DNA of 31,825 nucleotides from a virus (Duplodnaviria > Heunggongvirae > Uroviricota > Caudoviricetes). The notes beneath the pieces were generated by a model. That model saw only the letters and a list, made by a program, of their open reading frames with translations, ran no database searches and had not been told where the DNA came from. The position numbers and the translations under genes were made by a program. Positions 1,009 through 31,825 of the stretch are shown in pieces; the first letter of the stretch is position 1, and each line of letters starts with the position of its first letter. Location of the stretch: IMG/VR virus record IMGVR_UViG_2617270941_000009; one strand, given 5' to 3'.

Positions 1009-1590
1009 TTACCCTATAGGTGCTACTGGCCATTCAATATCCGGTGCAGTTGTTGTATTAACACGGTTCAGCAACACCCGATACTTCTTCCAGGCTTCCA
1101 GCAACGAGGTTTCTTCCTCCGTTGCAATTTCCAGATCTGCAGCATCCTGAAGCGGCGCAATATGCTCACTGGCTACCTGCATCAGGCTGTTTTTTGTTTC
1201 TTCCGCCTCCCGGATCCGGAACAGTTTTTCTGCTTCTGCATCTTTCACCCAGGCTGTGCCGTTCCACTTCTGATATTCCCCTCCCGGCGACAACCAGGTA
1301 ACATTTTCCGGTAACGGACCGAGTTCAGAAATAAATAACGCGTCGCCGGAAGCCACGTCATAAACCGTTTTACCCCGATGGTCTTCAACGAGATGCCACG
1401 ATGCCTCATCACTGTTGAAAACAGCCACAAAGCCAGCAGGAATATCTGGTGGTGCAATATCGGTACTGTTTGCTGGCAGACCTGTATGAGGCGGAATATA
1501 TGCGTCACCTTCACCAATAAATTCATTAGTTCCGGCCAGCAGATTATAAATTTTTATGGTCCGTGGTTGTTCACTCATTCTGAATGCCAT
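1009..1590 (-). CDS. tfa: tail fiber assembly protein Tfa (lambda orf-194 type)
   Basis: 193-aa translation [24 protein letters not shown]... is near-identical to remembered lambda Tfa; start overlaps stf stop (ATGA). Confidence 0.9.
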
Positions 1591-4500: not shown

Positions 4501-4664
4501 TACTCAACGTCCATGCTGTAACGCCCGGCCTCATCCGGATTTTCTGAGGCCAGCGTGTTCACCACCACCGTGGTGCTGTTACGTTTTGCTTTCAGCTGGA
4601 TTGTGCAGTTCTGTACCGGTTTTCCTGTGCCGTCTTTCAGTACACCTGAAATCTTTACTGCCAT
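1590..4664 (-). CDS. stf: side tail fiber protein Stf with long Ala/Ser/Thr-rich low-complexity region and His-rich C-terminal receptor-binding part
   Basis: Translation from the ATG at 4664 ([27 protein letters not shown]...) matches the lambda Stf N-terminus; C-terminus ...[31 protein letters not shown] matches the lambda Stf end. The track start at 4670 is GTG; the ATG at 4664 with GGGGTGA upstream is preferred. Confidence 0.85.
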
Positions 4665-4671
4665 ATTCACC

Positions 4672-4728: not shown

Positions 4729-5328
4729 TCAGAATTTATAACCGACACCCACGATGAAACCGTCAGTGCGCCAGTCACCACTGCCGGAGCCTTCATAAGC
4801 AATATCAATGGCCACGGATTCGGTCGGGTTAAACTGCACGCCAGCCCCCCACGCCAGAGACGTGTTGCTGTGGCGACCGTCATCACTTCCGGTCAGCACG
4901 TCGTGCGTTTTCCCCTTGTTGTCAGTTACGCGGAGATAATCCCCGGAGAAAGTCGACACACGGCTGTAAGCCATACCCGCCATCGCATACGCGCTGAACC
5001 ATTCATTCACGCGCACAGACGGCCCCGCCATTACGCTGAACCAGCGGTTACGAACGGAATCTTCATGCCAGCGGGTATTGCTGTAACGGGTCAGCTGGCG
5101 ATTCTTGTCTCCTGCATAGCTGAATGACGTCACCAGCCCCAGCGTATCCGTAAACTCGTAGCGGTATTTCACGTTAATCCCGTTCAGATCATCGCTGCCG
5201 GGTACGTTGGTCCGGGCATGAAGATACCCCGCGCTCAGTGTGGACTGATGTTCAGACGCCCATGAAGGCGCACCGGATACGGCCAGACAGATGGCTGCGG
5301 ACAAAATTGCTGCACAAACTTTACGCAT
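4729..5328 (-). CDS. lom: outer membrane protein Lom (Ail/Lom family)
   Basis: 199-aa translation with signal peptide and C-terminal ...FIVGVGYKF, matching remembered lambda Lom. Confidence 0.9.
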   Translation of the reverse strand: MRKVCAAILSAAICLAVSGAPSWASEHQSTLSAGYLHARTNVPGSDDLNGINVKYRYEFTDTLGLVTSFSYAGDKNRQLTRYSNTRWHEDSVRNRWFSVMAGPSVRVNEWFSAYAMAGMAYSRVSTFSGDYLRVTDNKGKTHDVLTGSDDGRHSNTSLAWGAGVQFNPTESVAIDIAYEGSGSGDWRTDGFIVGVGYKF

Positions 5329-5398: not shown

Positions 5399-6576
5399 TC
5401 AACGAATACTGATGCCGGAAGCAGCCTTTTTGGTCACAATCACCGTACAGTCGGTGATATTACCTGCCCCCTGATTGCCTTTCTGGAAAATCTTAAACTC
5501 CAGAGTGACGCTTCCTCTGCCACTCGGCATATCAATAACCGCACTGTAACTACCGGGAATGGCCCCTTTAGTTTCTCTGGATGCGATTAATACGCCGTTT
5601 TTGCGAACTTCAAAACCATAACCTGTGTATCGCGTGCCTCCGGGGTTATTTCCGCTCCCCGGATCGTCATACGCCACACCGTTAAAAATAATGGGCGGAA
5701 TAATGATTTGACGGTCAAAGTTATGATCATCGCTGATAGTGACTGTAACCGTCCCGTTTGGTGTTTCCGTGTTACCCCACGTACCAGCCTTCTTCGGGAA
5801 TGATTTGGATACTGTTTTAACAAAATCGCCTCTGACCTGATTCGCCTCCAGCATGCCCTTAATCGTACAGTTCTCATTTATCTTGACGTTGTTTAGCGTC
5901 CCGGCGTTCGCATTCACACTGCCACTGATATCCGCATTTTTCGCCGTCAGTCGCCCGTCCGGTGTCAGGGAAAATGCCGGAGGATTACCGCCGCTGGTAA
6001 TGGTAGGAGCCGTCAGGCGTTTCAGGAACACGTCGTTCATGAATATCTGATCGCCCTGCCCAACAAACATCGGCTTTGTGTTGCCATTCGCAGGATTAAT
6101 CATCGCAATCCTGTCTGCCGCCAGCAGCACCTGACTCTGCATGCCGTCAGGGGTGTTCTCAATACCGGCACCAATACCCGCGATATAAAGGCGTCCGTCC
6201 TGCATCTGCTGCAGCTTCACAGCCCACATGCTGTTCAGATTATTATTTGTATCAACCTGAACCTTCTGTATCTGCTGGATCGCTGCACTCTGGTCTTCCA
6301 GTTTCTTATTGACGGTCTGTGTGATTTCATTGCTGACATCCGTAATGGATGTCCTGATTTCAGCCAGGTCAGGCGCAAGCTGACCGTTATCAATCTGCGT
6401 CCACAGCTCCTGAGCCAGATGGGTTTTCCCTATCTCGCCTTTGAAAAAATCCAGATAGCCGGATGCGTCATCACTCGGCTGACCAACAGCCTCCACGAAT
6501 GCCGATTTGCCAACGGTGTTCACACTGCGAACGTAAAAATAATAATTATGGCCCGGCCTGATATTGATACTGGCGG
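5399..6576 (-). pseudogene. J: C-terminal fragment of tail tip protein J (host specificity protein), 5'-truncated by an internal prophage deletion
   Basis: Translation ...[33 protein letters not shown]...[30 protein letters not shown]... resembles the J C-terminal region. The first ~35 residues of the track ORF 5399..6688 are read through the nu1/cos region and are not J. Confidence 0.8.
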
Positions 6577-6623
6577 CTACTCGCACCGAAAATGTCAGCC
6601 AGCTGCTTTTTGTTGACTTCCAT
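6577..6623 (-). pseudogene. nu1: remnant of terminase small subunit nu1 (first ~15 codons, [15 protein letters not shown]) fused at a deletion junction to the J fragment
   Basis: Minus strand from the ATG at 6623 reads ATGGAAGTCAACAAAAAGCAGCTGGCTGACATTTTCGGTGCGAGT, the lambda nu1 start, then diverges into J-frame sequence. Confidence 0.65.
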
Positions 6624-6800
6624 TGTTCATTCCACGGCCAAAAACAGAGAAAGGAAACGACAAAGGCCCAAAAGTTCGTTTTCAGCACCTGTCGTTTCCT
6701 TTCTTTTTAGGGGGTATTTTAAATAGAAACATTAAGTTACGACGAAGAAGAACGGAAACGCCTTAAACCGGAAAATTTTCATAAATAGCGAAAACCCGCG

Positions 6801-7577: not shown

Positions 7578-7862
7578 TTTGTCGCTCCATGCGCTTGCTC
7601 TTCATCTAGCGGTTAAAATATTACTTCAAATCTTTCTGTATGAAGGTTTGAGCACGTTGGCCTTACATACATCTGTCGGTTGTATTTCCCTCCAGAATGC
7701 CAGCAGGACCGCACTTTGTTACGCAACCAATACTATTAATTGAAAACATTCCTAATATTTGACATAAATCATCAACAAAACACAAAGAGGTCAGACCAGA
7801 TTGAAGCGATAAAAACGATAATGCAAACTACGCGCCCTCGTATCACATGGAAGGTTTTACCA

Positions 7863-8273
7863 ATGGCTCAGGTTGCCATTTTTAAAGAAATATTCGATCA
7901 AGTGCGAAAAGATTTAAACTGTGAATTGTTTTATTCTGAACTAAAACGTCACAATGTCTCACATTATATTTACTATCTAGCCACAGATAATATTCACATT
8001 GTGTTAGAAAACGATAACACCGTGTTAATAAAAGGACTTAAAAAGGTTGTAAATGTTAAATTCTCAAGAAATACGCATCTTATAGAAACGTCCTATGATA
8101 GGTTGAAATCAAGAGAAATCACATTTCAGCAATACAGGGAAAATCTTGCTAAAGCAGGAGTTTTCCGATGGATTACAAATATCCACGAACATAAAAGATA
8201 TTACTATACCTTTGATAATTCATTACTATTTACTGAGAGCATTCAGAACACTACACAAATCTTTCCACGCTAA
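7863..8273 (+). CDS. DUF1398-type prophage protein, ybcV-like
   Basis: Translation from the ATG at 7863 ([43 protein letters not shown]...) matches remembered YbcV; the track start at 7740 is a TTG and is less likely. Confidence 0.6.
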
Positions 8274-8888: not shown

Positions 8889-9362
8889 CTATCTGCACTG
8901 CTCATTAATATACTTCTGGGTTCCTTCCAGTTGTTTTTGCATAGTGATCAGCCTCTCTCTGAGGGTGAAATAATCCCGTTCAGCGGTGTCTGCCAGTCGG
9001 GGGGAGGCTGCATTATCCACGCCGGAGGCCGTGGTGGCTTCACGCACTGACTGACAGACTGCTTTGATGTGCAACCGACGACGACCAGCGGCAACATCAT
9101 CACGCAGAGCATCATTTTCAGCTTTCGCATCAGCTAACTCCTTCGTGTATTTTGCATCGAGCGCAGCAACATCACGCTGACGCATCTGCATGTCAGTAAT
9201 TGCCGCGTTCGCTAGCTTCAGTTCTCTGGCATTTTTGTCGCGCTGGACTTTGTAGGCGATTGCGTTATCACGGTAATGATTGACCGCCCATGACAGGCTG
9301 ACGATGATGCAGATAATCAGAGCGGATATAATCGCGGTTACTCTGCTCACTGTTGCCCCCAC
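8889..9362 (-). CDS. Rz: Rz i-spanin (inner membrane spanin subunit)
   Basis: Translation ...[54 protein letters not shown]... matches lambda Rz; N-terminal TM helix. Start may be the GTG at 9362 or the GTG at 9350. Confidence 0.85.
8948..9130 (-). CDS. Rz1: Rz1 o-spanin lipoprotein, embedded in the +1 frame of Rz
   Basis: 60-aa translation [24 protein letters not shown]...[29 protein letters not shown] with lipobox and proline-rich region, wholly inside Rz. Confidence 0.85.
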
Positions 9363-9844
9363 AAACAGACTTCACGCTCAATCTCACGACGAGTCATCAG
9401 GCCTTTCCATTGCTTACCGCCAGCGTATGTCCAGCGACGCAGCTGATCACATGCGCCTTTGATATCGCCCTGGTTTATTTTGCGAAGAAGCGTCGATGTT
9501 CTAAAATTGCCAGCACCCACGTTGTAAACGAATGAGTAAAGAGCGCCGCGCGTTGTTTCCGGTATATCGACTTTGATATACGGGTTAATTTGTCTGGCGA
9601 CAGTGGCAAGGTCTTTATTCAAGAGTGCTTTGCATTCTGCTTTGGTATACGTTTTACCGAGCATGATGTCTTTTCCGGTGTGTCCGTGACATACAGTCCA
9701 TACACCAACAATATCTTTGTATGGTATGTAGCTGACACCTTCCAGACCATCGTTACCACTTGGGCCAGTGATTAACACTGATGCTATAGCAATTGCTCCG
9801 CCACCAATAGCAGCAGCAACGGCTTTTCGTAATGATGGAGGCAT
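9347..9844 (-). CDS. R: SAR endolysin (phage 21 R21-type lysozyme with N-terminal signal-anchor-release domain)
   Basis: 165-aa translation with Gly/Ala-rich weakly hydrophobic N-terminus ([20 protein letters not shown]), typical of a SAR domain, followed by a lysozyme-like domain; stop overlaps the Rz start. Confidence 0.85.
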
Positions 9845-10632: not shown

Positions 10633-11715
10633 ATGAAAAAATTAACAGTGGCAATTTCTGCTGTAGCTGCATCAGTACTGATGGCGATGTCTGCTCAGGC
10701 AGCTGAAATTTATAATAAAGACAGTAACAAGCTGGATCTGTACGGGAAAGTTAATGCTAAGCACTACTTCTCCTCTAATGATGCAGATGATGGTGATACT
10801 ACTTATGCCCGTCTTGGCTTCAAAGGTGAAACCCAAATCAACGATCAACTGACTGGTTTCGGTCAGTGGGAATATGAATTCAAAGGCAACCGCGCTGAAT
10901 CTCAAGGTTCCTCCAAAGATAAAACCCGTCTTGCCTTCGCTGGCCTGAAATTCGGTGACTACGGCTCAATCGATTACGGCCGTAACTACGGTGTAGCATA
11001 CGACATCGGTGCGTGGACTGACGTTCTGCCAGAATTCGGTGGCGATACCTGGACCCAAACAGATGTATTCATGACTGGTCGCACCACAGGTGTTGCAACT
11101 TATCGTAACAACGACTTCTTTGGTCTGGTTGATGGCCTGAACTTTGCAGCTCAGTATCAGGGCAAAAATGACCGAAATGAAGTAACTGAAGCTAATGGCG
11201 ATGGTTTCGGTTTCTCAACTACTTATGAGTATGAAGGATTCGGCGTGGGTGCAACCTATGCTAAATCTGATCGCACTAATAATCAGGTTATCTACGGTAA
11301 CAACGGTCTGAATGCTTCTGGTCAAAATGCTGAAGTATGGGCAGCTGGTCTGAAATATGATGCGAACAACATCTATCTGGCCACCACCTATTCTGAAACC
11401 CAGAACATGACTGTTTTTGGTAATAACCATATTGCCAACAAAGCACAAAACTTCGAAGCTGTTGCACAATATCAGTTCGACTTCGGCCTGCGTCCATCCG
11501 TTGCTTACCTGCATTCTAAAGGAAAAGACTTGGGTGTTTGGGGTGATCAGGACCTGGTTGAATATGTTGATGTAGGTGCAACCTATTACTTCAACAAAAA
11601 TATGTCCACTTTTGTTGACTACAAAATCAACCTGATTGATAAGAGCGATTTCACGAAAGCATCTGGCGTTGCTACCGATGATATCGTTGCTGTAGGTATG
11701 GTTTACCAGTTCTAA
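10633..11715 (+). CDS. nmpC: outer membrane porin of the OmpC/OmpF family (NmpC / phage Lc-type), apparently intact
   Basis: 360-aa translation with signal peptide [30 protein letters not shown]..., beta-barrel porin motifs and C-terminal ...VAVGMVYQF. Located between Q and the lysis genes on the opposite strand, as in DLP12. Confidence 0.9.
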
Positions 11716-15484: not shown

Positions 15485-17380
15485 TTAATTATTTTTCTTT
15501 AACTTGAAATTTCTTCCCATTGCTAGTGTTCTTCGAAGATTCGAATCATAAGCTGGTTGATAACATCTATCATAAAAATCCTTAATTGTCTGATGGTAAG
15601 TATCCAGCATCAAACCATAAAACCCCCTGACCTTAAGATAATCCACCAAGGGAAATAAATAATCATCAGTCTGAACATCAGTATCAATATTATTTTTTTG
15701 TTTTTTAACTTCAAATTTGTATAAGTTTAACTCACCCTTATCCATCGTGCATGAAAAAAGGTCGTCAAAAATCAAATCAATTTTTGTCATAGGAACTCGT
15801 TCTTTTCCAGACATTATAGGTAGAATATCAATACCTAAGAGCGAACCTAATACAAAGTCGTAATGAAGCGAAATCACTGAGTCATTCGATGTCGAGTTGC
15901 CTTTGATAAATACTCTACTTAGTGCCGAGTCAAAAACATTCTCAACTCTCTCTCTCGTCATGTTTGCGACATCTACAACCCCCATATCACGAGAAGCTTT
16001 TATTGTGATTTCATCTATAAATGCTTTGGAATCTAGTGAATGTAAAAACAACATGAAGTTATCTAACTGTTCAGAGCATTTAATAGCCACCATAAGATTT
16101 TCGTATATATCTTTTTTATACTCAATCGGTAAATTTGCTACCGCAAAAGCAGCATAAAATTCTTGCACTGATTTATGCAGAAAAACATACCTATTATTTC
16201 CCTCAGGTTGGATAAGGCAAGTTATCTCAATAAGATCATCTATAAAGTTTGATGCATCTTCTTTAAGATAACCTTCTGTTTCAATAGCATCTTCAGCATA
16301 TCTAAGCAACTCTTCTCCCCAAAACTCAAATTTCTCCTCAATCAGTGCGTTATAGCAAATAGCTGAAAAACACAATTTAGCTTTTTCACCAATAATGTTT
16401 GATTTTTTCTCGCGCGTATATACTTTTATTTTATCATGCCTTGCATATAAGGTGTCAAAGAGGCTTCGATAAAACTCTATTATATTATTTGGAATATCAT
16501 TCATATAAGGATAACAATAATACAAAAGAGTAACTAAAATTGGATTGCAAATAGTTCCCTCAAGTTCTTCTTTATCACATAGTAAATCCGCCAAGACTTT
16601 AAACGAGGCATCACTACTTGAGAATCTGTCATTTTTCGATAAAGAATGAAGAATACAAATCTTATCAGAAATATTTAGCTTATCTATAAAAATATTATAC
16701 ACATCAGTAGTATAACATATATCTGTATTTGGTCTCGTTGTTGCGATAATTGGTGTGTTAAAATGATAATGAATGTTTTTTATTTCATTCATCATCATAG
16801 TTCGCTCTTCATGTTTAACCTCATCAAATCCATCCAACATTAAAACGACTCTTTGGGATTGCAGTAATATTTTCAAGCTATCCTCTGAACACCCCACACC
16901 AAATGAATTAAGAATGTCTGCCAGATAAGCAATAATATTTGCATTCTTCACCCTTCTTAATTCAATAAAAAAAGGCATCCGTTCTGATTTTTTTATTTCC
17001 TCGCTAAACAACTTGCGTAAAATAGTACTTTTCCCTTGCCCCGCTATACCGACTATATTTACAATACCATGAAATGGTAAAGTGACCCCATCTTTTATAA
17101 CGACCTTGTCTTTATTAGATGCCACCTCAACAGTTAACGGATAATAAATATCATCTAAAAAAATATCATAATCAGCGTTGTGCAAAGTTCTCATTTTCAG
17201 AGATGGTAGCACATGCTTTCTTAAATAATTTTCTCTTCCGAGGGGATCATTTAATTGTTCGAGTATAACCTTGCCTTCATCTAGGTCCCTAGCCCAAGGT
17301 TTAGAGAGCAATACTTCTGTTATTTTTTCCGCAGCTTTTCCTACTGTGCTATTAATAATAGTCGCAAGAAACTCATCCAT
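15485..17380 (-). CDS. NACHT/STAND-type P-loop NTPase, candidate single-gene anti-phage defence protein
   Basis: Walker A GIAGQGKST; Walker B VVLMLDGFDEV (NACHT-type DGxDE); sensor-1-like IIATTRP; NPILVTLL motif. The track start at 17437 is a TTG; the ATG at 17380 (MDEFLATIINS..., RBS GGTGAAAAA) is preferred, with the ATG at 17416 as an alternative. Markedly AT-rich by eye. Confidence 0.75.
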   Translation of the reverse strand: MDEFLATIINSTVGKAAEKITEVLLSKPWARDLDEGKVILEQLNDPLGRENYLRKHVLPSLKMRTLHNADYDIFLDDIYYPLTVEVASNKDKVVIKDGVTLPFHGIVNIVGIAGQGKSTILRKLFSEEIKKSERMPFFIELRRVKNANIIAYLADILNSFGVGCSEDSLKILLQSQRVVLMLDGFDEVKHEERTMMMNEIKNIHYHFNTPIIATTRPNTDICYTTDVYNIFIDKLNISDKICILHSLSKNDRFSSSDASFKVLADLLCDKEELEGTICNPILVTLLYYCYPYMNDIPNNIIEFYRSLFDTLYARHDKIKVYTREKKSNIIGEKAKLCFSAICYNALIEEKFEFWGEELLRYAEDAIETEGYLKEDASNFIDDLIEITCLIQPEGNNRYVFLHKSVQEFYAAFAVANLPIEYKKDIYENLMVAIKCSEQLDNFMLFLHSLDSKAFIDEITIKASRDMGVVDVANMTRERVENVFDSALSRVFIKGNSTSNDSVISLHYDFVLGSLLGIDILPIMSGKERVPMTKIDLIFDDLFSCTMDKGELNLYKFEVKKQKNNIDTDVQTDDYLFPLVDYLKVRGFYGLMLDTYHQTIKDFYDRCYQPAYDSNLRRTLAMGRNFKLKKNN

Positions 17381-17768
17381 TTTTTCACCACATTCATTAA
17401 CCAATACGTGGTGCATTCTTACAAGACTCAGTAACAATTGTCAATCATAGGTTTTCGCATGATTGCAAAACGCCATAAACAATTGTAGCACCATAATTTT
17501 AAACACTATATAATATACAACCTTCCTACAAGCATTCAGTACATCGCTTAATCACAGGGCTTGAATATATAGTAAGGAATCGATATTAATCACCTCATCT
17601 ACTTTAAACATCTTACACACCTATAATTTATAATAGTCAACACGAGGTCATCATATTAAACATGCAATTACAAACATTCATTTTTATATAAATTTTCATG
17701 ATTTAACCGTAGAGCGACGGTAATAAATTTCATATACAAGGATTTAAGCTCCCATACGTTTTCTATTA

Positions 17769-18646: not shown

Positions 18647-19542
18647 AGATCCACCCCGTAAATCCAGTCTGTGTTTGTCAGGTCGAGTTTTGGTTTGCTG
18701 GCTGTCACGCCTGCCTGTTGCTTGTTACGGTTGATTTCGAGTTGGGTCCACTTATCGCGGAGTTTGGCCGGGCTCAGCACGTTACCGGACCAGAAGTTGT
18801 CCTGGCATGCCCAGCGGAACAGCACGCACATGTCGCGGTGGTTACGTCCGTCACGTTCACGCATCAGGCGGATATCGTTAGCCCACCCAGCAAAATTCGG
18901 TTTTCTGGCTGATGGTGCGATAGTCTTCACCATGTCAAACATCCACTCTGCGGCGGTCAGGTCTTCTGCTGTCCCCCACTTGCTGCCGCTCTGAATTGCA
19001 GCATCCGGTTTCACCACAGAAAGGTCGTTTTCTGGCTGGTCAGAGGATTCGCCAGAATTCTCTGACGAATAATCTTTTCTTTTTTCTTTTGTAATAGTGT
19101 CTTTTGTGTCCCCCTGTTTTGAGGGATAGCAATCCCCCAATTTGAGGGATGTTTTATCCCTCGTTTTAGGGGATTTTCCCTCGTTTTGAGGGATGCACCA
19201 TTCTGAGATGTTTTTATTTGGTCCAAACATGCCGCCTTGCTGCTTGATAATATTCATTCTGACGAGTTCTAACTTGGCTTCATTGCACCGTTTGACGGGT
19301 AACTTTGTAATCTCGCTAAGTTGAGAATCGGTGATTCTGTCCATTGGTTTATTCCACCCATAGGTTTTACGCAGAATGGCAAGCAGCACTTTAAACTGTC
19401 GCTTGGTCAGATCTGCGCCCGAATAAGCCTCAAGCAGCATATTTGATAGTCTGGCGTAACCATCATCGAGATCTGCCACATTACGCTCCTGTCCGGCAAA
19501 GTTACCTCTGCCGAAGTTGAGTATTTTTGCTGTATTTGTCAT
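18643..19542 (-). CDS. O: replication initiator protein O
   Basis: 299-aa translation near-identical to remembered lambda O (MTNTAKILNFGRGNFAGQERNVADLDDGYARLSNMLLEAY...). Confidence 0.95.
   Translation of the reverse strand: MTNTAKILNFGRGNFAGQERNVADLDDGYARLSNMLLEAYSGADLTKRQFKVLLAILRKTYGWNKPMDRITDSQLSEITKLPVKRCNEAKLELVRMNIIKQQGGMFGPNKNISEWCIPQNEGKSPKTRDKTSLKLGDCYPSKQGDTKDTITKEKRKDYSSENSGESSDQPENDLSVVKPDAAIQSGSKWGTAEDLTAAEWMFDMVKTIAPSARKPNFAGWANDIRLMRERDGRNHRDMCVLFRWACQDNFWSGNVLSPAKLRDKWTQLEINRNKQQAGVTASKPKLDLTNTDWIYGVDL
19110..19196. other. ori: ori-lambda: four iterons (TCCCTCAAAACGAGGGA-type repeats) inside the O gene, with adjacent AT-rich region
   Basis: Repeats ccctgttttgaggga / atcccccaatttgaggga / atccctcgttttagggga / tccctcgttttgaggga seen; AT-rich block at ~19060..19105. 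Confidence 0.85.
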
Positions 19543-21696: not shown

Positions 21697-22020
21697 ATGG
21701 ATGCACAAACACGCCGCCGCGAACGTCGCGCAGAGAAACAGGCTCAATGGAAAGCAGCAAATCCCCTGTTGGTTGGGGTAAGCGCAAAACCAGTTAACCG
21801 CCCTATTCTCTCGCTGAATCGCAAACCGAAATCACGAGTAGAAAGCGCACTGAATCCGATAGACCTTACGGTGCTGGCTGAATACCACGAACAGATTGAA
21901 AGCAACCTGCAACGTATTGAGCGCAAGAATCATCGAGTTTGGTATAGCAAGCCAAGTGAGTTCGGTATAACTTGTCAAGGAAGACAAAAGGTTAAAGGGA
22001 AATCCATTCCATTGGCATGA
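21697..22020 (+). CDS. N: antiterminator protein N
   Basis: Translation from the ATG at 21697 (MDAQTRRRERRAEKQAQWKAANPLLVGVSAKPVNRPILSLNRKPKSRVESALNPIDLTVLAEYH...) matches lambda N; the track ORF starts upstream. Confidence 0.9.
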   Translation: MDAQTRRRERRAEKQAQWKAANPLLVGVSAKPVNRPILSLNRKPKSRVESALNPIDLTVLAEYHEQIESNLQRIERKNHRVWYSKPSEFGITCQGRQKVKGKSIPLA

Positions 22021-22028
22021 GGTACGTA

Positions 22029-22898
22029 ATGAAGAAAATTGATTACAAGTCCATACCAAAACCAATAGACTCAGCATCAGAGCGAAAAAAACACAAAAAA
22101 GAGGCTGAAAAATTAGCAAATTATATCAGTTTTATTAGAAACAATGCTCACGGCGATGGCGACAGGAAGTTGCTTTCAGATGCCCGGACCCAAGCGTTCA
22201 GTATACTTCGTAAGCAGATGCAATATCGTCTTCATCCAGGCTACATAATTGAAATTCGCCCGACTGAAAGACAATTGTTCTTATTAAACTCTGTCTTTGA
22301 CTTTGTAAACGTAGTTGGAGATCTTATCGACAGGTCTGTAGATAAGGCTCCTGATACAAATAGTTTTCTTCTAACAAATAAAGAATACTTATATGGTAAA
22401 TTTGGTATAAACGGATGGCAAAAATATGTACGATTCTTACGTGCATTCGTTGATGCGTATAAAAATTCCGACATGATTTATACATATTTGCCTGGTGGTG
22501 ATAATTGTACGCTTTCGGCAGACAATAGAATATTCATACCTATACTTGGTCTTGGGCTGATTAATGCAGTAAATGAAAGAGATGTTATAATTGTTAAGCA
22601 GTGGCGAAAGCATGAGGGATATAGATATCTGCCATGCTTTGATATATTAAAAATACAGAATAAATTCTATGTAAAAATTAAATATAAAGAAGATGTTTTC
22701 TTCCTCAGAAAAAACAAAGATCTTTTACAAGAACTTTCTGGGACAATAGATGTCATCGTAGGTTCTAGGTTTATAAAAGAACTGAAAGAAAGCAGGTCTT
22801 TCTCTCGTGTAGAGATAAGCGAGTCAGAGTTATGGGGTATATCAAATAATCCTGTAAACCACGCTCACCAACGAAATCCAAACAAAAAGTGGTCATAA
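22029..22898 (+). CDS. hypothetical protein (289 aa), AT-rich orphan gene at the ral/sieB hotspot; candidate superinfection-exclusion or abortive-infection factor
   Basis: ORF immediately after N (the track ATG at 22017 overlaps the N stop; the ATG at 22029 with GAGG RBS is preferred). Strongly AT-rich by eye; no catalytic motif recognised; followed by an intrinsic terminator. Confidence 0.55.
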   Translation: MKKIDYKSIPKPIDSASERKKHKKEAEKLANYISFIRNNAHGDGDRKLLSDARTQAFSILRKQMQYRLHPGYIIEIRPTERQLFLLNSVFDFVNVVGDLIDRSVDKAPDTNSFLLTNKEYLYGKFGINGWQKYVRFLRAFVDAYKNSDMIYTYLPGGDNCTLSADNRIFIPILGLGLINAVNERDVIIVKQWRKHEGYRYLPCFDILKIQNKFYVKIKYKEDVFFLRKNKDLLQELSGTIDVIVGSRFIKELKESRSFSRVEISESELWGISNNPVNHAHQRNPNKKWS

Positions 22899-25986: not shown

Positions 25987-26062
25987 CAACCACGGAATGC
26001 ATTTTTCTGGCAGCGGGCTTCATATTCTGTGTGCTTATGCTTGCCGACATGGGACTTGTTCA

Positions 26063-26278
26063 ATGACACCTCAGCAGGAAAACGCCCTTCGCAGCATTGC
26101 CCGTCAGGCTAATTCTGAAATCAAAAAAGCCAGACAGCAGTTTCCGGATAAAAACGTCGATGACATTTGCCGTAGCGTACTGAAGAAGCACCGCGAAACG
26201 GTAACGCTGATGGGATTCACACCGACTCATTTAAGCCTGGCAATCGGCATGTTAAACGGCGTCTTTAAGGAACGATGA
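26063..26278 (+). CDS. small early protein, lambda orf61-like
   Basis: Translation from the ATG at 26063 (MTPQQENALRSIARQANSEIKKARQQFPDKNVDDICRSVLKKHRETVTLMGFTPTHLSLAIGMLNGVFKER); the track ORF starts upstream at 25967. Confidence 0.55.
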   Translation: MTPQQENALRSIARQANSEIKKARQQFPDKNVDDICRSVLKKHRETVTLMGFTPTHLSLAIGMLNGVFKER

Positions 26279-26376
26279 ACATGAAAAGCAAAATCATCAG
26301 GGAGCTACAGGCTCCTTTTTTATTATTCGCATTCACCCTCAAGCGTATTAACCAACAATTCAGGGATTAATGGAAG

Positions 26377-26598
26377 ATGGCAGACATCATTGATTCAGCA
26401 TCAGAAATTGAAGAATTACAGCGCAACACAGCAATAAAAATGCGCCGCCTGAACCACCAGGCTATATCTGCCACTCATTGTTGTGAGTGTGGCGATCCGA
26501 TAGATGAACGAAGACGCCTGGTCGTTCAGGGTTGTCGGACTTGTGCAAGTTGCCAGGAAGATCTGGAGCTTATCAGTAAACAGAGAGGTTCGAAGTGA
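26377..26598 (+). CDS. TraR/DksA-family C4 zinc-finger protein (lambda orf73-like)
   Basis: 73-aa ORF with CxxC...CxxC (HCCECGDPIDERRRLVVQGCRTCASCQ), characteristic of TraR-like RNAP-binding proteins. Confidence 0.75.
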   Translation: MADIIDSASEIEELQRNTAIKMRRLNHQAISATHCCECGDPIDERRRLVVQGCRTCASCQEDLELISKQRGSK

Positions 26599-26897
26599 GC
26601 GAAATTAACTCTCAGGCACTGCGTGAAGCGGCAGAGCAGGCAATGCATGACGACTGGGGATTTGACGCAGACCTTTTCCATGAATTGGTAACACCATCGA
26701 TTGTGCTGGAACTGCTGGATGAGCGGGAAAGAAACCAGCAATACATCAAACGCCGCGACCAGGAGAACGAGGAAATTGCGCTAACGGTAGGAAAGCTGCG
26801 CGTTGAGCTGGAAGCAGCAAAATCAAAACTCAACGAGCAGAGTGAATATTACGAAGGTGTTATCTCGAATGGAAGTAAGCGTATTGCTGAACTGTAG
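26595..26897 (+). pseudogene. ea22: ea22, truncated (N-terminal ~100 aa only); marks the left boundary of a foreign b-region replacement
   Basis: Translation MSEINSQALREAAEQAMHDDWGFDADLFHELVTPSIVLELLDERERNQQYIKRRDQENE... matches the lambda Ea22 N-terminus but stops after ...SNGSKRIAEL; lambda Ea22 is ~182 aa. Confidence 0.65.
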
Positions 26898-27147
26898 GCC
26901 TAGGTTGAATGTACAAGATTTGCATACGTAAGAGCAAAAGACAAGGGAGAATTGATCAGAGTTATTACCTGCCAACCAACGGGATATTACGCTTACGTAC
27001 CATGTAACTAGGAATCCTTGAAGTGGCAGCCTAACTGTGGATACACTGAAATGGCGATTTGGTAACATGTTTCGCACAAAGCTGTTACTATGCTTAGAGA
27101 TAATCAGTCATGATTAAATGCTTTGTAAAAAGTAAAAGGAAATTACA

Positions 27148-27762
27148 ATGAAAAAATCAACACTAATTTTAGGGCTTACGTTAATTGTCTCATCTCAAAT
27201 ACCTTCGGCAATGGCAAAAAATGAATCAAAACTTTGGGTTGTTGTTGATCGAACGGAAAGACATACCTGCCCTTCAAGTAAATGTGGAGTGGCTGGGAAA
27301 CTATTTTTCAGGGAAGGCGTAGATTTTCTAGAAAAAAAAGGTGAATGGGTTCGTATAACTGGGCCATATTCAGCCTCATGTGTGGGAGGGGAAAGCGAAT
27401 ATATTAAAGAAGGTAATAAATCCTGCACAAGAAAAAACGGAATCGTTAATGGCAAGTTTTCAGAATGGGTTAAACTTAGTGATCTTAGCAGTGAAAGGCC
27501 ATCAGATCCTGCTGAAAATGCGAGCAGAAATGATACCTTAATCAAAGGATCTGATGACTACCGTATATACAAAAAAGAGTTTTCTTCGGCAGCTAGGAAG
27601 TTAATAAGTGAAGGTGTCTGCACGGAGAGCGATTTTAAGGAAATTGGAGGGTGGATGGCATCAAGCAATAAGGGTGAAAACATCTATTTCACATATTGCG
27701 GAGGAATGACGTTGTCGAACAGAATATATCTAGACGTTAAAAGTGGAAAGACTTTTAGATAA
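27148..27762 (+). CDS. hypothetical secreted protein (204 aa, signal peptide), AT-rich cargo gene
   Basis: N-terminus MKKSTLILGLTLIVSSQIPSAMA is signal-peptide-like; several Cys; no family recognised. Confidence 0.5.
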   Translation: MKKSTLILGLTLIVSSQIPSAMAKNESKLWVVVDRTERHTCPSSKCGVAGKLFFREGVDFLEKKGEWVRITGPYSASCVGGESEYIKEGNKSCTRKNGIVNGKFSEWVKLSDLSSERPSDPAENASRNDTLIKGSDDYRIYKKEFSSAARKLISEGVCTESDFKEIGGWMASSNKGENIYFTYCGGMTLSNRIYLDVKSGKTFR

Positions 27763-28421
27763 TATGATATTACTAATGACAGCATTAATTTAATGCCTCC
27801 ATAGAATTATCTCTAGGAAGTAAGTATAAGAAAAGTCCGCACAATGAGCTGCTGCGGGCTTTGTGTTATTCGCCATATTTTATGAAGCAAATACGACACT
27901 ATAGATAATTAAGCGTTACTGGTTGTCGATTCCTCACTCATTCCTGCTGATGGCTGTCTTCTTGTATGTGCCATTGAAGGGTAATATCGCGTAAAAAGAT
28001 ACCGGAAGTATCCGCGCCGCCATGATTGTCTTTCTCCTGATGCAGGAAAAGCAGAATGACTAAACCAGCAGCAGAGCGCAAAGCCGATCAGAGAGCCAAG
28101 CAAGCATCATCCGGTATGCGTAAGCTGGAGCTTGTACTTGATGCTCGGAAATTGAAATGCTGGAGCGTAACTGAGCCACGCGCCGCTTCAGGCGTGCGCC
28201 TTACGAGTTTGGTGAGTACATAGCGTTACTGAGCCGCCAGGATGATGCACGTGTGCGCTGGCGTATAAAATCGATTAGCAGAAAACGTTGCCGTAAGTGC
28301 GGCGAGAGAGTTCCTGTTAATTCATGCCCGTGTAATGGTGACTCACAATACTGGGTGACCAAAGGCTGGCACGAAACAAAATTAATGATATAAATCTCTG
28401 TGACATGTCACGGAGGCGGCA

Positions 28422-28850
28422 ATGAAATTAGACCAGCAATATCTAAAAGATCTACTTATCGCATTCGAAAAAACTTATGGCCCTGACACGATGCTTAGTG
28501 AACTAGAGGATAATGGCTTTAATAGATATGACCAAAATTTTATTTTCCATATGCGATTATTATGTGACTACGAATTAATAGTTAGGGTTGATGGAAAACC
28601 TGGGTTCGGTCATATAATGTCCAACGAGTTAGGGGAAGGTGTTGAATATAGTTGGATCGAAGTACCACTGAGGTTGACAGCAAGAGGGCATGATTTTATT
28701 GCTGACTTACGTCAAAAGGAGGTCTGGCAAGCTATAAAAACAAACTTTAAGGATGAGGGAATTAGTACTCTTATGAGTGTTTCAAAATCACTAGCAAAAG
28801 GCTTTGCAAGGAAAAAAATAAAAGATATTACAGGAATAGATATTGAATAA
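28422..28850 (+). CDS. hypothetical protein (142 aa), AT-rich cargo gene
   Basis: ORF with plausible RBS (GGAGG upstream); no family recognised with confidence. Confidence 0.5.
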   Translation: MKLDQQYLKDLLIAFEKTYGPDTMLSELEDNGFNRYDQNFIFHMRLLCDYELIVRVDGKPGFGHIMSNELGEGVEYSWIEVPLRLTARGHDFIADLRQKEVWQAIKTNFKDEGISTLMSVSKSLAKGFARKKIKDITGIDIE

Positions 28851-29092
28851 TTCTTAGCATCAAGCAACTACTGCCTTTGGTGAAAATTATATCTGAACTC
28901 GCTACGGCGAGTTTTGTTTTACGGAGATGATAAATGCACTTCAGAGTCACTGGTGAATGGAATGGAGAACCATTCAACAGAGTTATCTAAGCAGAGAACA
29001 TCAATGACTGCTATGACAACTGGATGATATGGGCGCAGATAGCACATGCAGACATAACCAATATTCGAATTGAAGAACTGAAAGAACACCAA

Positions 29093-29114
29093 GCCGCCTG
29101 ATGGCGGTTTTTTC
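29093..29114 (+). terminator. intrinsic terminator upstream of xis (GCCGCC-TGAT-GGCGG + T-run)
   Basis: Hairpin with TTTTTTC seen in sequence. Confidence 0.45.
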
Positions 29115-29140
29115 TTGCGTGTAATTGCGGAGACTTTGCG

Positions 29141-29359
29141 ATGTACTTGACACTTCAGGAGTGGAACGCTCGCCAGCGACGCCCAAGAAGCCTTGAAACA
29201 GTTCGTCGATGGGTGCGCGAATGCAGGATATTCCCTCCTCCGGTTAAGGATGGAAGAGAATATCTGTTCCACGAATCAGCGGTAAAGGTTGACTTAAATC
29301 GACCAGTAACAGGTAGCCTTTTGAAGAGGATCAGAAATGGGAAGAAGGCGAAGTCATGA
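29141..29359 (+). CDS. xis: excisionase Xis
   Basis: 72-aa translation MYLTLQEWNARQRRPRSLETVRRWVRECRIFPPPVKDGREYLFHESAVKVDLNRPVTGSLLKRIRNGKKAKS matches lambda Xis. Confidence 0.95.
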   Translation: MYLTLQEWNARQRRPRSLETVRRWVRECRIFPPPVKDGREYLFHESAVKVDLNRPVTGSLLKRIRNGKKAKS

Positions 29360-30407
29360 GCGCCGGGATTTACCCCCTAACCTTTATATAAGAAACAATG
29401 GATATTACTGCTACAGGGACCCAAGGACGGGTAAAGAGTTTGGATTAGGCCGAGACAGGCGAATCGCAATCACTGAAGCTATACAGGCCAACATTGAGTT
29501 ATTTTCAGGACACAAACACAAGCCTCTGACAGCGAGAATCAACAGTGATAATTCCGTTACGTTACATTCATGGCTTGATCGCTACGAAAAAATCCTGGCC
29601 AGCAGAGGAATCAAGCAGAAGACACTCATAAATTACATGAGCAAAATTAAAGCAATAAGGAGGGGTCTGCCTGATGCTCCACTTGAAGACATCACCACAA
29701 AAGAAATTGCGGCAATGCTCAATGGATACATAGACGAGGGCAAGGCGGCGTCAGCCAAGTTAATCAGATCAACACTGAGCGATGCATTCCGAGAGGCTAT
29801 AGCTGAAGGCCATATAACAACAAACCCGGTCGCAGCCACTCGCGCTGCAAAATCAGAGGTAAGGAGATCAAGACTTACGGCTGACGAATACCTGAAAATT
29901 TATCAAGCAGCAGAATCATCACCATGTTGGCTTAGACTTGCAATGGAACTGGCTGTTGTTACCGGGCAGCGAGTTGGTGATTTATGCGAAATGAAGTGGT
30001 CTGATATCGTAGATGGATATCTTTATGTCGAGCAAAGCAAAACAGGCGTAAAAATTGCCATCCCAACAACATTGCATGTTGATGCTCTCGGGATATCAAT
30101 GAAGGAAACACTTGATAAATGCAAAAAGATTCTTGGCGGAGAAACCATAATTACATCTACTCGTCGTGAACCGCTTTCATCCGGCACAGTATCAAGGTAT
30201 TTTATGCGCGCACGAAAAGCATCAGGTCTCTCCTTCGAAGGGGATCCGCCAACCTTTCACGAGTTGCGCAGTTTGTCTGCAAGACTCTATGAGAAGCAGA
30301 TAAGCGATAAATTTGCTCAACATCTTCTCGGGCATAAGTCGGACACCATGGCATCACAGTATCGTGATGACAGAGGCAGGGAGTGGGACAAAATTGAAAT
30401 CAAATAA
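29337..30407 (+). CDS. int: tyrosine integrase Int (lambda type)
   Basis: 356-aa translation MGRRRSHERRDLPPNLYIRNNGYYCYRDPRTGKEFGLGRDRRIAITEAIQ... matches lambda Int; overlaps xis as in lambda. Confidence 0.95.
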   Translation: MGRRRSHERRDLPPNLYIRNNGYYCYRDPRTGKEFGLGRDRRIAITEAIQANIELFSGHKHKPLTARINSDNSVTLHSWLDRYEKILASRGIKQKTLINYMSKIKAIRRGLPDAPLEDITTKEIAAMLNGYIDEGKAASAKLIRSTLSDAFREAIAEGHITTNPVAATRAAKSEVRRSRLTADEYLKIYQAAESSPCWLRLAMELAVVTGQRVGDLCEMKWSDIVDGYLYVEQSKTGVKIAIPTTLHVDALGISMKETLDKCKKILGGETIITSTRREPLSSGTVSRYFMRARKASGLSFEGDPPTFHELRSLSARLYEKQISDKFAQHLLGHKSDTMASQYRDDRGREWDKIEIK

Positions 30408-30495
30408 TGATTTTATTTTGACTGATAGTGACCTGTTCGTTGCAACAAATTGATAAGCAATGCTTTTTTATAATGCCAACTTAGTATAAAAAAGC
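30408..30495. other. attL: attL junction: P' arm with Int arm-type sites and 15-bp core TTAGTATAAAAAAGC (30481..30495, reverse complement of GCTTTTTTATACTAA) abutting host DNA
   Basis: Core sequence and adjacent P'-arm sequence (tgatttcaattttgtcccactccc...caaattgataagcaatgcttttttataatgccaac) seen as reverse complement. Confidence 0.85.
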
Positions 30496-30541
30496 AGGCT
30501 TCAACGGATTCATTTTTCTATTTCATAGCCCGGAGCAACCT

Positions 30542-31825
30542 GTGAACACATTTTCAGTTTCCCGTCTGGCGCTGGCATTGGCTTTTGGCGTGACGCTGAC
30601 CGCCTGTAGCTCAACCCCGCCCGATCAACGTCCTTCTGATCAAACCACGCCTGGTACCTCTTCTCGCCCGATTCTGTCGGCAAAAGAAGCGCAGAATTTC
30701 GATGCTCAACACTATTTTGCATCCCTGACACCAGGTGCTGCAGCGTGGAATCCTTCCCCGATTACCCTGCCTGCGCAACCTGACTTTGTTGTCGGCCCGG
30801 CGGGCACTCAAGGTGTAACGCATACCACGATTCAGGCGGCGGTAGATGCGGCAATTATCAAGCGTACCAACAAGCGCCAGTATATTGCCGTGATGCCTGG
30901 TGAGTATCAGGGAACGGTATATGTCCCTGCCGCTCCGGGTGGAATTACTCTGTACGGTACAGGTGAAAAACCGATTGATGTGAAGATTGGGCTTTCCCTT
31001 GATGGTGGCATGAGCCCTGCCGACTGGCGTCACGACGTCAACCCGCGCGGCAAATATATGCCAGGTAAACCAGCGTGGTATATGTACGATAGCTGCCAGA
31101 GCAAACGCAGCGACAGTATCGGTGTTCTCTGCTCTGCGGTCTTCTGGTCACAAAACAATGGCCTGCAACTGCAAAATCTGACCATCGAAAACACGCTGGG
31201 CGATAGCGTAGATGCAGGTAACCATCCGGCGGTGGCACTGCGTACTGATGGTGACCAGGTACAGATTAACAACGTTAACATTCTCGGTCGTCAGAACACC
31301 TTCTTTGTCACCAACAGCGGTGTGCAGAACCGTCTGGAAACCAACCGTCAGCCGCGTACGCTGGTGACCAACAGCTACATTGAAGGGGATGTGGATATCG
31401 TTTCTGGTCGCGGCGCAGTGGTGTTCGATAACACCGAATTCCGCGTGGTGAACTCACGTACTCAGCAAGAAGCGTATGTGTTTGCACCGGCTACGCTGTC
31501 CAACATTTACTACGGTTTCCTCGCCGTAAACAGCCGTTTCAATGCTTTCGGTGATGGTGTGGCGCAACTGGGCCGCTCGCTGGATGTTGATGCCAATACC
31601 AACGGTCAGGTGGTGATCCGTGATAGCGCCATCAACGAAGGTTTTAACACGGCTAAACCGTGGGCCGATGCGGTGATCTCTAATCGTCCGTTTGCGGGTA
31701 ATACCGGCAGCGTAGATGATAACGACGAAATACAGCGCAATCTGAATGACACTAACTACAACCGCATGTGGGAATACAATAACCGCGGCGTGGGTAGTAA
31801 AGTGGTTGCAGAGGCGAAGAAGTAA
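30542..31825 (+). CDS. ybhC: host outer-membrane lipoprotein YbhC (pectinesterase-like acyl-CoA thioesterase), the chromosomal gene flanking the lambda attachment site
   Basis: 427-aa ORF with GTG start, GGAG RBS and lipoprotein signal (LTACSS); GC-rich host-like codon usage; matches remembered YbhC, adjacent to attB-lambda in E. coli. Confidence 0.85.
   Translation: MNTFSVSRLALALAFGVTLTACSSTPPDQRPSDQTTPGTSSRPILSAKEAQNFDAQHYFASLTPGAAAWNPSPITLPAQPDFVVGPAGTQGVTHTTIQAAVDAAIIKRTNKRQYIAVMPGEYQGTVYVPAAPGGITLYGTGEKPIDVKIGLSLDGGMSPADWRHDVNPRGKYMPGKPAWYMYDSCQSKRSDSIGVLCSAVFWSQNNGLQLQNLTIENTLGDSVDAGNHPAVALRTDGDQVQINNVNILGRQNTFFVTNSGVQNRLETNRQPRTLVTNSYIEGDVDIVSGRGAVVFDNTEFRVVNSRTQQEAYVFAPATLSNIYYGFLAVNSRFNAFGDGVAQLGRSLDVDANTNGQVVIRDSAINEGFNTAKPWADAVISNRPFAGNTGSVDDNDEIQRNLNDTNYNRMWEYNNRGVGSKVVAEAKK

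Follow-up and report, generated by a model that had tools for sequence, protein, structure and literature searches.

The lambda exo-xis region (ea22, ea8.5, orf55 and xis) follows exo in the pL operon and is separated from the b region by att in the established lambda map (PMC10834534, PMC7093339); it is variable among lambdoid phages (PMC7093339, PMC10834534). Full-length lambda Ea22 has a dimeric C-terminal domain (PMC10834534). The lambdoid morons (bor, lom, porin Lc/NmpC) are single AT-rich cargo genes for envelope proteins that sit between conserved phage genes in some relatives and are missing from others. Epsilon15-type phages have, in a constant place ahead of terS where the early operon ends, a pair made up of a DUF2513 gene and a small 'transcriptional regulator' gene of the family of epsilon15 gp49, phiV10 p55, TL-2011b gp20 and N15 gp46 (phrog_536); the literature on epsilon15 gp49 and N15 gp46 yielded no functional account. 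SH3b domains serve as cell-wall-binding domains in endolysins and NlpC/P60 hydrolases.

The block between ea22 and xis in the window (the whole stretch of 31,825 nt analysed here) is read, with a probability of about 0.8, as the product of mosaic substitution: the prophage is defective and lambda-like, and the exchange affects its exo-xis (pL-distal) region. Its features are listed in Table 1. The prophage lacks head and terminase genes and its J gene is truncated; host ybhC begins at 30542, 3' of xis and int, and the element is integrated at the attB adjoining ybhC.

Table 1. Features of the ea22-int segment (positions in the window)
Feature	Position	Strand	Basis or description
Truncated ea22	26595..26897	+	100 codons; N-terminal and coiled-coil part, lambda-type C-terminal domain lost
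Foreign insert	26895..28885	.	in place of ea22 codons 101-182 and ea8.5 of lambda
Gene for 204-aa exported protein	27148..27762	+	intact; Sec signal peptide (AMA/K), SH3b-like domain, conserved ~85-aa C-terminal domain
UmuD-like (S24 peptidase) gene fragment	27913..28023	+	5'-truncated; in-frame TAA at 27982-27984
Pseudogene, epsilon15 gp49 / phiV10 p55 / N15 gp46 type (112-aa 'transcriptional regulator')	28056..28393	+	alignment, phrog_536, allele census
Perfect 12-nt palindrome GTGACATGTCAC	28400..28411	.	inherited with the gp49-like gene
DUF2513 gene (142 aa)	28422..28850	+	intact; winged helix-turn-helix protein
Intrinsic terminator	28895..28924	+	terminator scan; within resumed lambda-homologous DNA
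Homologue of lambda orf55 (lambdap35)	28934..29101	+	translation against lambda and relatives
xis	29141-29359	+	ORF list, annotation of near-identical genomes
int	29337-30407	+	ORF list, annotation of near-identical genomes

Alignment with lambda (BLAST against NC_001416) showed 97.9% identity up to 26894 and 97.7% again from 28886, with breakpoints at 26894/26895 and 28885/28886. The genomic slot and the transcriptional setting downstream of exo are those of the lambda exo-xis region, with flanks about 98% identical, but 1,991 bp of unrelated DNA stand here instead of 762 bp of lambda DNA, ea8.5 is absent and Ea22 is left without its C-terminal domain. Relative to lambda, the initial annotation was therefore right to call this DNA foreign; its placement in the b region has to be corrected to the exo-xis region of the pL operon. 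The ea22 remnant, correctly described as ending after about 100 codons, matches Pfam Ead_Ea22 (PF13935; E 1.5e-28, 100.6 bits, cut-off 27) and is collinear with residues 1-100 of the 182-residue lambda protein. Its TAG stop codon arises at the recombination junction, where lambda identity ends, and PGAP labels the gene 'missing C-terminus' in near-identical genomes. Beyond the right breakpoint, the terminator has the same sequence in lambda, 3' of ea8.5. The orf55 homologue that follows carries a premature TAA at codon 19 (28988-28990; 'internal stop' in PGAP), which is common to 5 of 46 loci, and different knock-outs occur at other loci.

The composition of the segment is uneven: the GC content is 37-39% at 26850-28050 and 28350-29100, and about 50% at 27900-28350 and in the flanks of the insert. 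The DNA is thus AT-rich as first described, but in two AT-rich pieces on either side of a core of about 50% GC, not in one. Within piece 2 the translation of the umuD-like fragment ('S24 family peptidase / DNA repair protein, incomplete' in PGAP) aligns with a longer remnant at another locus, L007, and this remnant shares 52% identity with UmuD residues 25-103. By the GC profile and this comparison of remnants, the insert is not the single island that had been proposed but combines a umuD-like fragment with two or more pieces of separate derivation. Among 5,426 complete E. coli genomes, 130 carry the whole block, as does the viable phage Chlobot; it is missing from lambda, HK630 and others, and piece 2 occurs without piece 1 in another prophage, adjoining torI/dsdC. 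In the favoured reading, recombination exchanged the end of ea22 and the whole of ea8.5 for DNA of two or more origins. Piece 1 (26895-27912, AT-rich) brought one self-contained cargo gene. Piece 2 (27913-28885) is the distal end of an early operon from an epsilon15/phiV10-type phage and comprises in this order the umuD-like fragment, the gp49/p55-type gene, the conserved palindrome of that gene and the DUF2513 winged-helix gene.

The palindrome GTGACATGTCAC lies 3' of the stop codon of the gp49-like gene, as in the phages named above for phrog_536, and is found at the same position in about 60 loci (chance expectation, 0.04 per window); epsilon15 has three copies, each at the 3' end of an operon. 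The phiV10 record ends inside the palindrome, and a role as a cos-site marker was considered and rejected: the epsilon15 record continues past it, so the phiV10 end is a mere opening point of the record.

A closer inspection of the gp49-like gene revealed three lesions: one nucleotide is lost between 28146 and 28147, Cys codon 40 has become an in-frame TGA (TGT>TGA, 28172-28174), and a Cys of the C-terminal zinc ribbon is replaced by Tyr (Cys>Tyr, 28349-28351). The 55-codon ORF reported from 28056 to a TAG at 28221 is present (28056-28223), as is the Cys-rich continuation in another frame, which runs to 28393; the change of frame is real, but what had been taken for a single break is the 1-nt deletion together with the in-frame TGA. 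The repaired translation of 28056-28393 matches phrog_536 end to end (E 5e-47, positions 1-111 of a 115-position profile) and is about 87% identical to phiV10 p55, with about 90% nucleotide identity to phiV10 and TL-2011b. The initial annotation had asked whether an intact zinc-ribbon ORF of about 110 aa exists elsewhere; intact copies are present in phiV10 (p55), epsilon15 (gp49) and TL-2011b (gp20), and, within the same block, intact 112-codon alleles in phage Chlobot and at locus L025. The window allele has neither an uninterrupted frame of about 112 codons nor the full set of zinc-ribbon cysteines, and differs from this family also in its context, lambda exo-xis and not directly upstream of terS. 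Of 46 block loci in a census, 18 had an intact allele and 22 the codon-40 TGA; several knock-outs of independent origin were also counted, among them a TGA at codon 79 and 5' deletions.

The codon-40 TGA allele is carried by at least 63 E. coli genomes on three haplotypes, whereas the 1-nt deletion was seen in none of the 5,426 E. coli genomes, is private to the window and may reflect an error made in sequencing the source assembly. The suggestion of a recent inactivation applies, accordingly, to the private deletion only, the TGA being older. A near-direct repeat noticed at the break does exist (28164-28177 and 28222-28235, 13 of 14 positions identical, 58 nt apart), but it is at chance level, because 2.4 kb contain eight two-copy families of its size, and its place at the break is coincidental; it was rejected as the cause of the frame break. 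Its copies are less alike in intact relatives (12/14 in Chlobot, 10/14 in phiV10), and a templating of TGT>TGA from the second copy would be speculation.

Two readings would keep the gp49-like gene functional or give it a partner. That the interrupted gene still works, by selenocysteine insertion or readthrough at the codon-40 TGA or as two genuine small genes, might be suggested by the alignment of the TGA with a conserved Cys codon, by its persistence on three haplotypes and by the match of the N-terminal piece to a 40-residue PHROG family (phrog_34005). This is extremely unlikely: pN/pS (summed here and throughout over pairwise comparisons of few closely related haplotypes, so that the estimates are not independent) was 0.99 for the broken alleles, as in neutral evolution, and 0.29 for the intact ones, and other alleles were knocked out at different places. 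The hairpin 3' of the TGA is no better than in shuffled sequence (z = -0.89) and is disrupted by the G>A variant of A14-type alleles, so that despite the Sec/Cys alignment a selenoprotein was discarded; in the window allele a frameshift precedes the TGA as well and one zinc-ligand Cys is gone, and related genomes hold one 112-codon frame, not two genes. The small gene is a true pseudogene, an inactivated copy of a zinc-ribbon gene of about 112 aa, which is dispensable here and has decayed through the old TGT>TGA change, the private frameshift and the lost zinc ligand. In the second reading the gp49-like gene would encode an RHH-type antitoxin and DUF2513, downstream of it, the toxin of a toxin-antitoxin-like pair. 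Cronobacter prophages do have a p55-like and a DUF2513 gene side by side ahead of terS, with a short conserved spacer (about 27-31 nt), and the two genes are likewise adjacent, with this spacer, at 13 of about 40 diverged viral loci. The gp49-like N-terminus weakly resembles the CopG/RHH-type 'LexA regulated protein' model (E 0.007, below the cut-off), the only match obtained from NCBIfam. A type II pair was nevertheless rejected and is highly improbable, since at least 63 genomes combine a dead gp49-like gene with an intact DUF2513 gene under selection, a state that would be lethal if the former were the antitoxin; in addition, DUF2513 occurs without a gp49-like gene in about two thirds of the diverged loci, and the reverse is also seen, while its ordinary winged-helix fold contains no toxin-like domain. 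The retention of DUF2513 beside a dead gp49-like gene indicates that it works independently of that gene.

The two ORFs singled out as orphan genes, of 204 and 142 aa, are both present and are real genes, with homologues across genera and pN/pS values of 0.17 and 0.44, respectively, among E. coli haplotypes, which place both under purifying selection; they are uncharacterised accessory genes, and none of the annotated homologues of either has an assigned function. Sequence searches of the PDB with the two proteins and with the gp49-like protein gave nothing usable. The 142-aa protein matches Pfam DUF2513 (PF10711) over the whole model (1-100 of 100; 42.7 bits against a gathering threshold of 29.6) and has relatives 47-77% identical in Enterobacterales prophages. 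To our knowledge this family is without known function, and the literature on DUF2513 and on the RefSeq protein accessions yielded no functional account. Its predicted structure (pLDDT 92) adopts a MarR/PadR-like winged helix-turn-helix fold, and the protein is presumably a small DNA-binding regulator.

The predicted structure of the 204-aa protein (pLDDT 89) contains an SH3b-like beta-barrel, assigned at the level of the fold: the protein scores 15.5 bits against Pfam SH3_3 (PF08239), below the cut-off of 27, although some of its homologues exceed the SH3b cut-off. It differs from the SH3b proteins of the endolysin and NlpC/P60 type in lacking a catalytic hydrolase domain and in having as partner an uncharacterised domain of about 85 aa, for which no PDB or Pfam match was obtained. 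This domain forms 532 clusters at 50% identity and is C-terminal in all of them, often with a signal peptide as its only companion; in the cases inspected, the gene adjoins an integrase or lies within a prophage. A Pfam scan of its longest relatives found no partners other than SH3b and, in a single protein, ankyrin repeats. Accessory slots of Pseudomonas islands and of an Aeromonas prophage also contain the 204-aa gene, which travels there without companions; these neighbourhoods share no gene with the present window. The product would be exported via Sec, with a small, probably disulfide-bonded C-terminal domain, and may act in the periplasm or cell envelope, where binding of peptidoglycan or another envelope ligand seems most plausible. 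That it belongs to an undescribed envelope family of mobile elements, possibly one that shields lysogens at the cell wall (through superinfection exclusion, for instance, or immunity to peptidoglycan-targeting attack), with DUF2513 as a second lysogen-associated factor, is a tentative and rather unlikely proposal.

As an extra gene variable among relatives, with a GC content of 37-39% against about 50%, the cargo agrees with one element of the moron definition (Hendrix) and resembles bor, lom and porin Lc/NmpC. The other element is a promoter and terminator of its own for expression from the repressed prophage; here a crude consensus scan, which may have missed an internal promoter, found no sigma70-like site on the + strand (26300-29400). 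The only clear terminators near the block belong to lambda-homologous DNA, and Rfam at a permissive threshold returned no RNA family in 26000-30600. Since the scan gave the block no promoter of its own, expression is probably by way of the N-antiterminated pL transcript.

The initial annotation had also pointed to defence. An anti-phage defence or superinfection-exclusion island, with the exported SH3b protein as the barrier to incoming phage at the envelope and DUF2513, alone or together with the gp49-like protein, as sensor or regulator, would agree with an AT-rich block in the accessory slot of a temperate phage, variably present among related prophages, with two intact genes that are under purifying selection in lysogens and nearly exclusive to prophages (50,697 genomes of isolated phages gave 1 and 2 records), and with the 204-aa family adjoining integrases in several kinds of mobile elements. 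Against it, PADLOC-DB v2 gave no match at E <= 1 for the truncated Ea22, 204-aa, repaired p55-like and DUF2513 proteins; no nuclease, NTPase, protease, TIR/SIR2 or pore-forming domain, nor any other of enzymatic or effector type, was found; the crude scan offers no + strand promoter-like site for expression in a repressed lysogen; and the fixed place of the p55-DUF2513 pair in epsilon15-type phages resembles phage housekeeping or regulation. We consider a defence island unlikely; the block is ordinary phage mosaicism with no demonstrable island of that kind.

The significance of this mosaic substitution goes little beyond annotation. Two by-products may prove useful: a widespread extracytoplasmic domain without family assignment, riding on prophages and integrative islands, and a natural knock-out series that separates DUF2513 from its usual upstream neighbour; neither alters current understanding unless a phenotype is found. 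The locus is an example of cassette exchange between the lambda exo-xis region and unrelated phage types, here an epsilon15/phiV10-type podovirus lineage, and of the fate of the transplanted genes, which are either kept or left decaying.

BLAST comparison with phage lambda delimited the block within this lambda-like prophage, whose int gene abuts the host ybhC. The match to lambda runs at 97.9% identity up to 26894, at codon 100 of ea22, and resumes at 97.7% identity from 28886, just upstream of the lambda terminator, orf55 (lambdap35), xis and int. Therefore, 1,991 bp (26895-28885) stand in place of 762 bp of lambda encoding the Ea22 C-terminal domain and ea8.5. The b region of lambda, where the initial annotation had located the block, lies across att from the exo-xis region. 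The slot belongs to the latter, in the pL operon (PMC10834534, PMC7093339). The ea22-like, 204-codon, 142-codon and 55-codon ORFs were recovered by an ORF check at the coordinates proposed there. A survey of 5,426 complete E. coli genomes located the whole block in 130, and one phage isolate, Chlobot, has it too.

Coordinates of the block, its surroundings and the palindrome copies (positions in the window unless a phage or comparison locus is named)
Feature	Position	Strand
tfa	1009-1590	
stf	1590-4670	
lom	4729-5328	
J, truncated	5399-6688	
DUF1398 gene	7740-8273	+
Lysis genes	8889-9844	
Porin gene	10633-11715	+
NACHT/STAND ORF	15485-17437	-
293-aa ORF	22017-22898	+
ea22-like ORF, 100 codons	26595-26897	
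204-codon ORF	27148-27762	
UmuD-like fragment	27913-28023	
gp49-like gene	28056-28393	
55-codon ORF	28056-28223	
TAG ending it	28221	
1-nt deletion	between 28146 and 28147	
TGA for TGT	28172-28174	
TGC to TAC	28349-28351	
Near-repeat	28164-28177, 28222-28235	
Palindrome GTGACATGTCAC	28400-28411	
DUF2513 gene, 142 codons	28422-28850	
orf55 homologue	28934-29101	
TAA at its codon 19	28988-28990	
GTGACATGTCAC, epsilon15 (L115)	2142-2153, 19517-19528, 39612-39623	
GTGACATGTCAC, phiV10 (L107)	2262-2273	
GTGACATGTCAC, locus L026	5617-5628	
GTGACATGTCAC, locus L023	8600-8611	

Alignment with seven relatives joined the 55-codon ORF and the cysteine-rich continuation in another frame into one 112-codon gene, homologous to phiV10 p55, epsilon15 gp49 and TL-2011b gp20. 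Its repaired translation aligns over the whole length with phrog_536 ('transcriptional regulator'; E 5e-47), a family found in 146 phage records, N15 gp46 among them. Three lesions were seen: a 1-nt deletion absent from all seven aligned relatives and from all 5,426 E. coli genomes; a TGA replacing a cysteine codon, carried by at least 63 E. coli genomes and flagged as 'internal stop' by PGAP in near-identical ones; and a Cys to Tyr change in the zinc ribbon. Among the 46 block-carrying loci surveyed for alleles of this gene, the intact frame, whose length the initial annotation had put at about 110 aa, occurs in 18 (Chlobot and the comparison locus L025 included), TGA at codon 40 in 22, in three haplotypes, and the others carry independent knock-outs (TGA at codon 79, 5' deletions).

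The pN/pS of broken alleles is 0.99, against 0.29 for intact ones, and the RNA downstream of the TGA showed no folding advantage over shuffled sequence. Recoding at the TGA is rejected on both counts, and two separate genes are rejected by the alignment of the relatives as a single gene; therefore, the gp49-like gene is a true pseudogene, and the inactivation first suspected holds. The near-direct repeat at the break does exist (13/14 identical), but it belongs to a set of eight comparable two-copy families within 2.4 kb, so it was treated as chance.

The neighbouring 142-codon product scores over the Pfam threshold for DUF2513. Its gene (pN/pS 0.44) is full-length and gap-free in 44 of the 46 block loci, the remaining two being the contig-edge L052 and one of L062/L063, matching over only 135/142 residues. 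It remains intact where the adjoining gp49-like allele is dead, and in Serratia prophages it adjoins xis-int without any gp49-like gene, which excludes a toxin-antitoxin relationship between the two and argues that DUF2513 acts independently. The spacer separating them contains a perfect palindrome, kept at this position in about 60 loci. In epsilon15-type phages the palindrome lies repeatedly at the 3' ends of rightward operons, either overlapping the last gene's stop codon or following it, and in two cases out of three just ahead of an annotated rho-independent terminator; epsilon15 holds 3 copies (0.14 expected), and those behind gp49 and terL flank the (DUF2513)-terS-terL module. Candidate roles for it are a protein-binding site and an RNA 3'-end element.

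The GC content is 37-39% at 26850-28050 and 28350-29100, and near 50% at 27900-28350 and in the flanks. The segment 27913-29117, which begins with a UmuD-like S24 peptidase gene fragment containing an in-frame stop, recurs at 95.7% identity in a different prophage adjoining torI/dsdC, unaccompanied by the 204-aa gene. The DUF2513 gene of Cronobacter prophages has an intact gp49-like gene 27 nt upstream of it, the pair immediately upstream of terS, and of about 40 diverged viral loci, 13 show this adjacency (spacer about 27-31 nt). This pairing and the right segment lacking the 204-aa gene therefore identify the block as a composite of a slice of an epsilon15/phiV10-type early-operon end and a separately acquired AT-rich piece.

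The 204-aa protein carries a Sec signal peptide at its N-terminus and contains six conserved cysteines, its gene shows a pN/pS of 0.17, and homologues 60-68% identical occur in Pseudomonas and Aeromonas. A profile search placed its C-terminal domain in 532 clusters at 50% identity, always C-terminal, either alone behind a signal peptide or after SH3b; we infer an envelope-level role and nothing more specific. The gene moves as lone cargo: homologues lie directly after the integrase in Pseudomonas islands and among early or accessory genes in an Aeromonas prophage, these neighbourhoods share no genes with the window, and of two stand-alone C-domain genes inspected one adjoins an integrase and the other lies in a prophage-like early region. 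The Pseudomonas islands (L008-L014) are small, also contain a conserved set of unannotated genes of about 208/236, 105, 130 and 337 aa, and could represent phage satellites or small integrative elements.

The prophage is defective: ahead of the lysis genes it has tfa, stf, lom and a J cut down to the last 429 residues, whereas terminase, head and further tail genes are missing there, and a DUF1398 gene occupies the gap between J and the lysis genes. A gene for a 360-aa Gram-negative porin (Porin_1, E 3.6e-152), presumably the known Lc/NmpC-type phage-borne porin moron, lies between Q and the lysis genes. The 293-aa ORF that closely follows the N-like antiterminator gene matches phrog_12139 (unknown function), with no Pfam or PADLOC match. 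The early stop of orf55 is common to 5 of the 46 block loci and other knock-outs (W9 stop, frameshift) occur elsewhere, so orf55 also decays repeatedly in resident prophages.

The 'moron island' of the initial annotation stands as an accessory block with uncharacterised genes, now of two pieces; a defence role was not borne out, with no PADLOC match for Ea22' (the truncated ea22 product), the 204-aa, repaired p55-like or DUF2513 proteins, no effector-type domain in domain searches of the block proteins and no + strand promoter-like site in 26300-29400. A 650-aa ORF between the O/P replication genes and Q contains a NACHT/STAND NTPase domain (residues 126-237; Pfam NACHT 3e-11; phrog_18297) and has no PADLOC match; this nin-region protein makes a better candidate for anti-phage defence than the block does. 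Isolated phage genomes almost entirely lack the 204-aa and DUF2513 genes, and both are under selection in lysogens; this is compatible with a benefit to the lysogen without demonstrating one. The block is thus an ordinary mosaic accessory substitution, in which two uncharacterised intact genes accompany several decaying remnants, the locus retaining ea22', umuD', the gp49-like pseudogene and the interrupted orf55.
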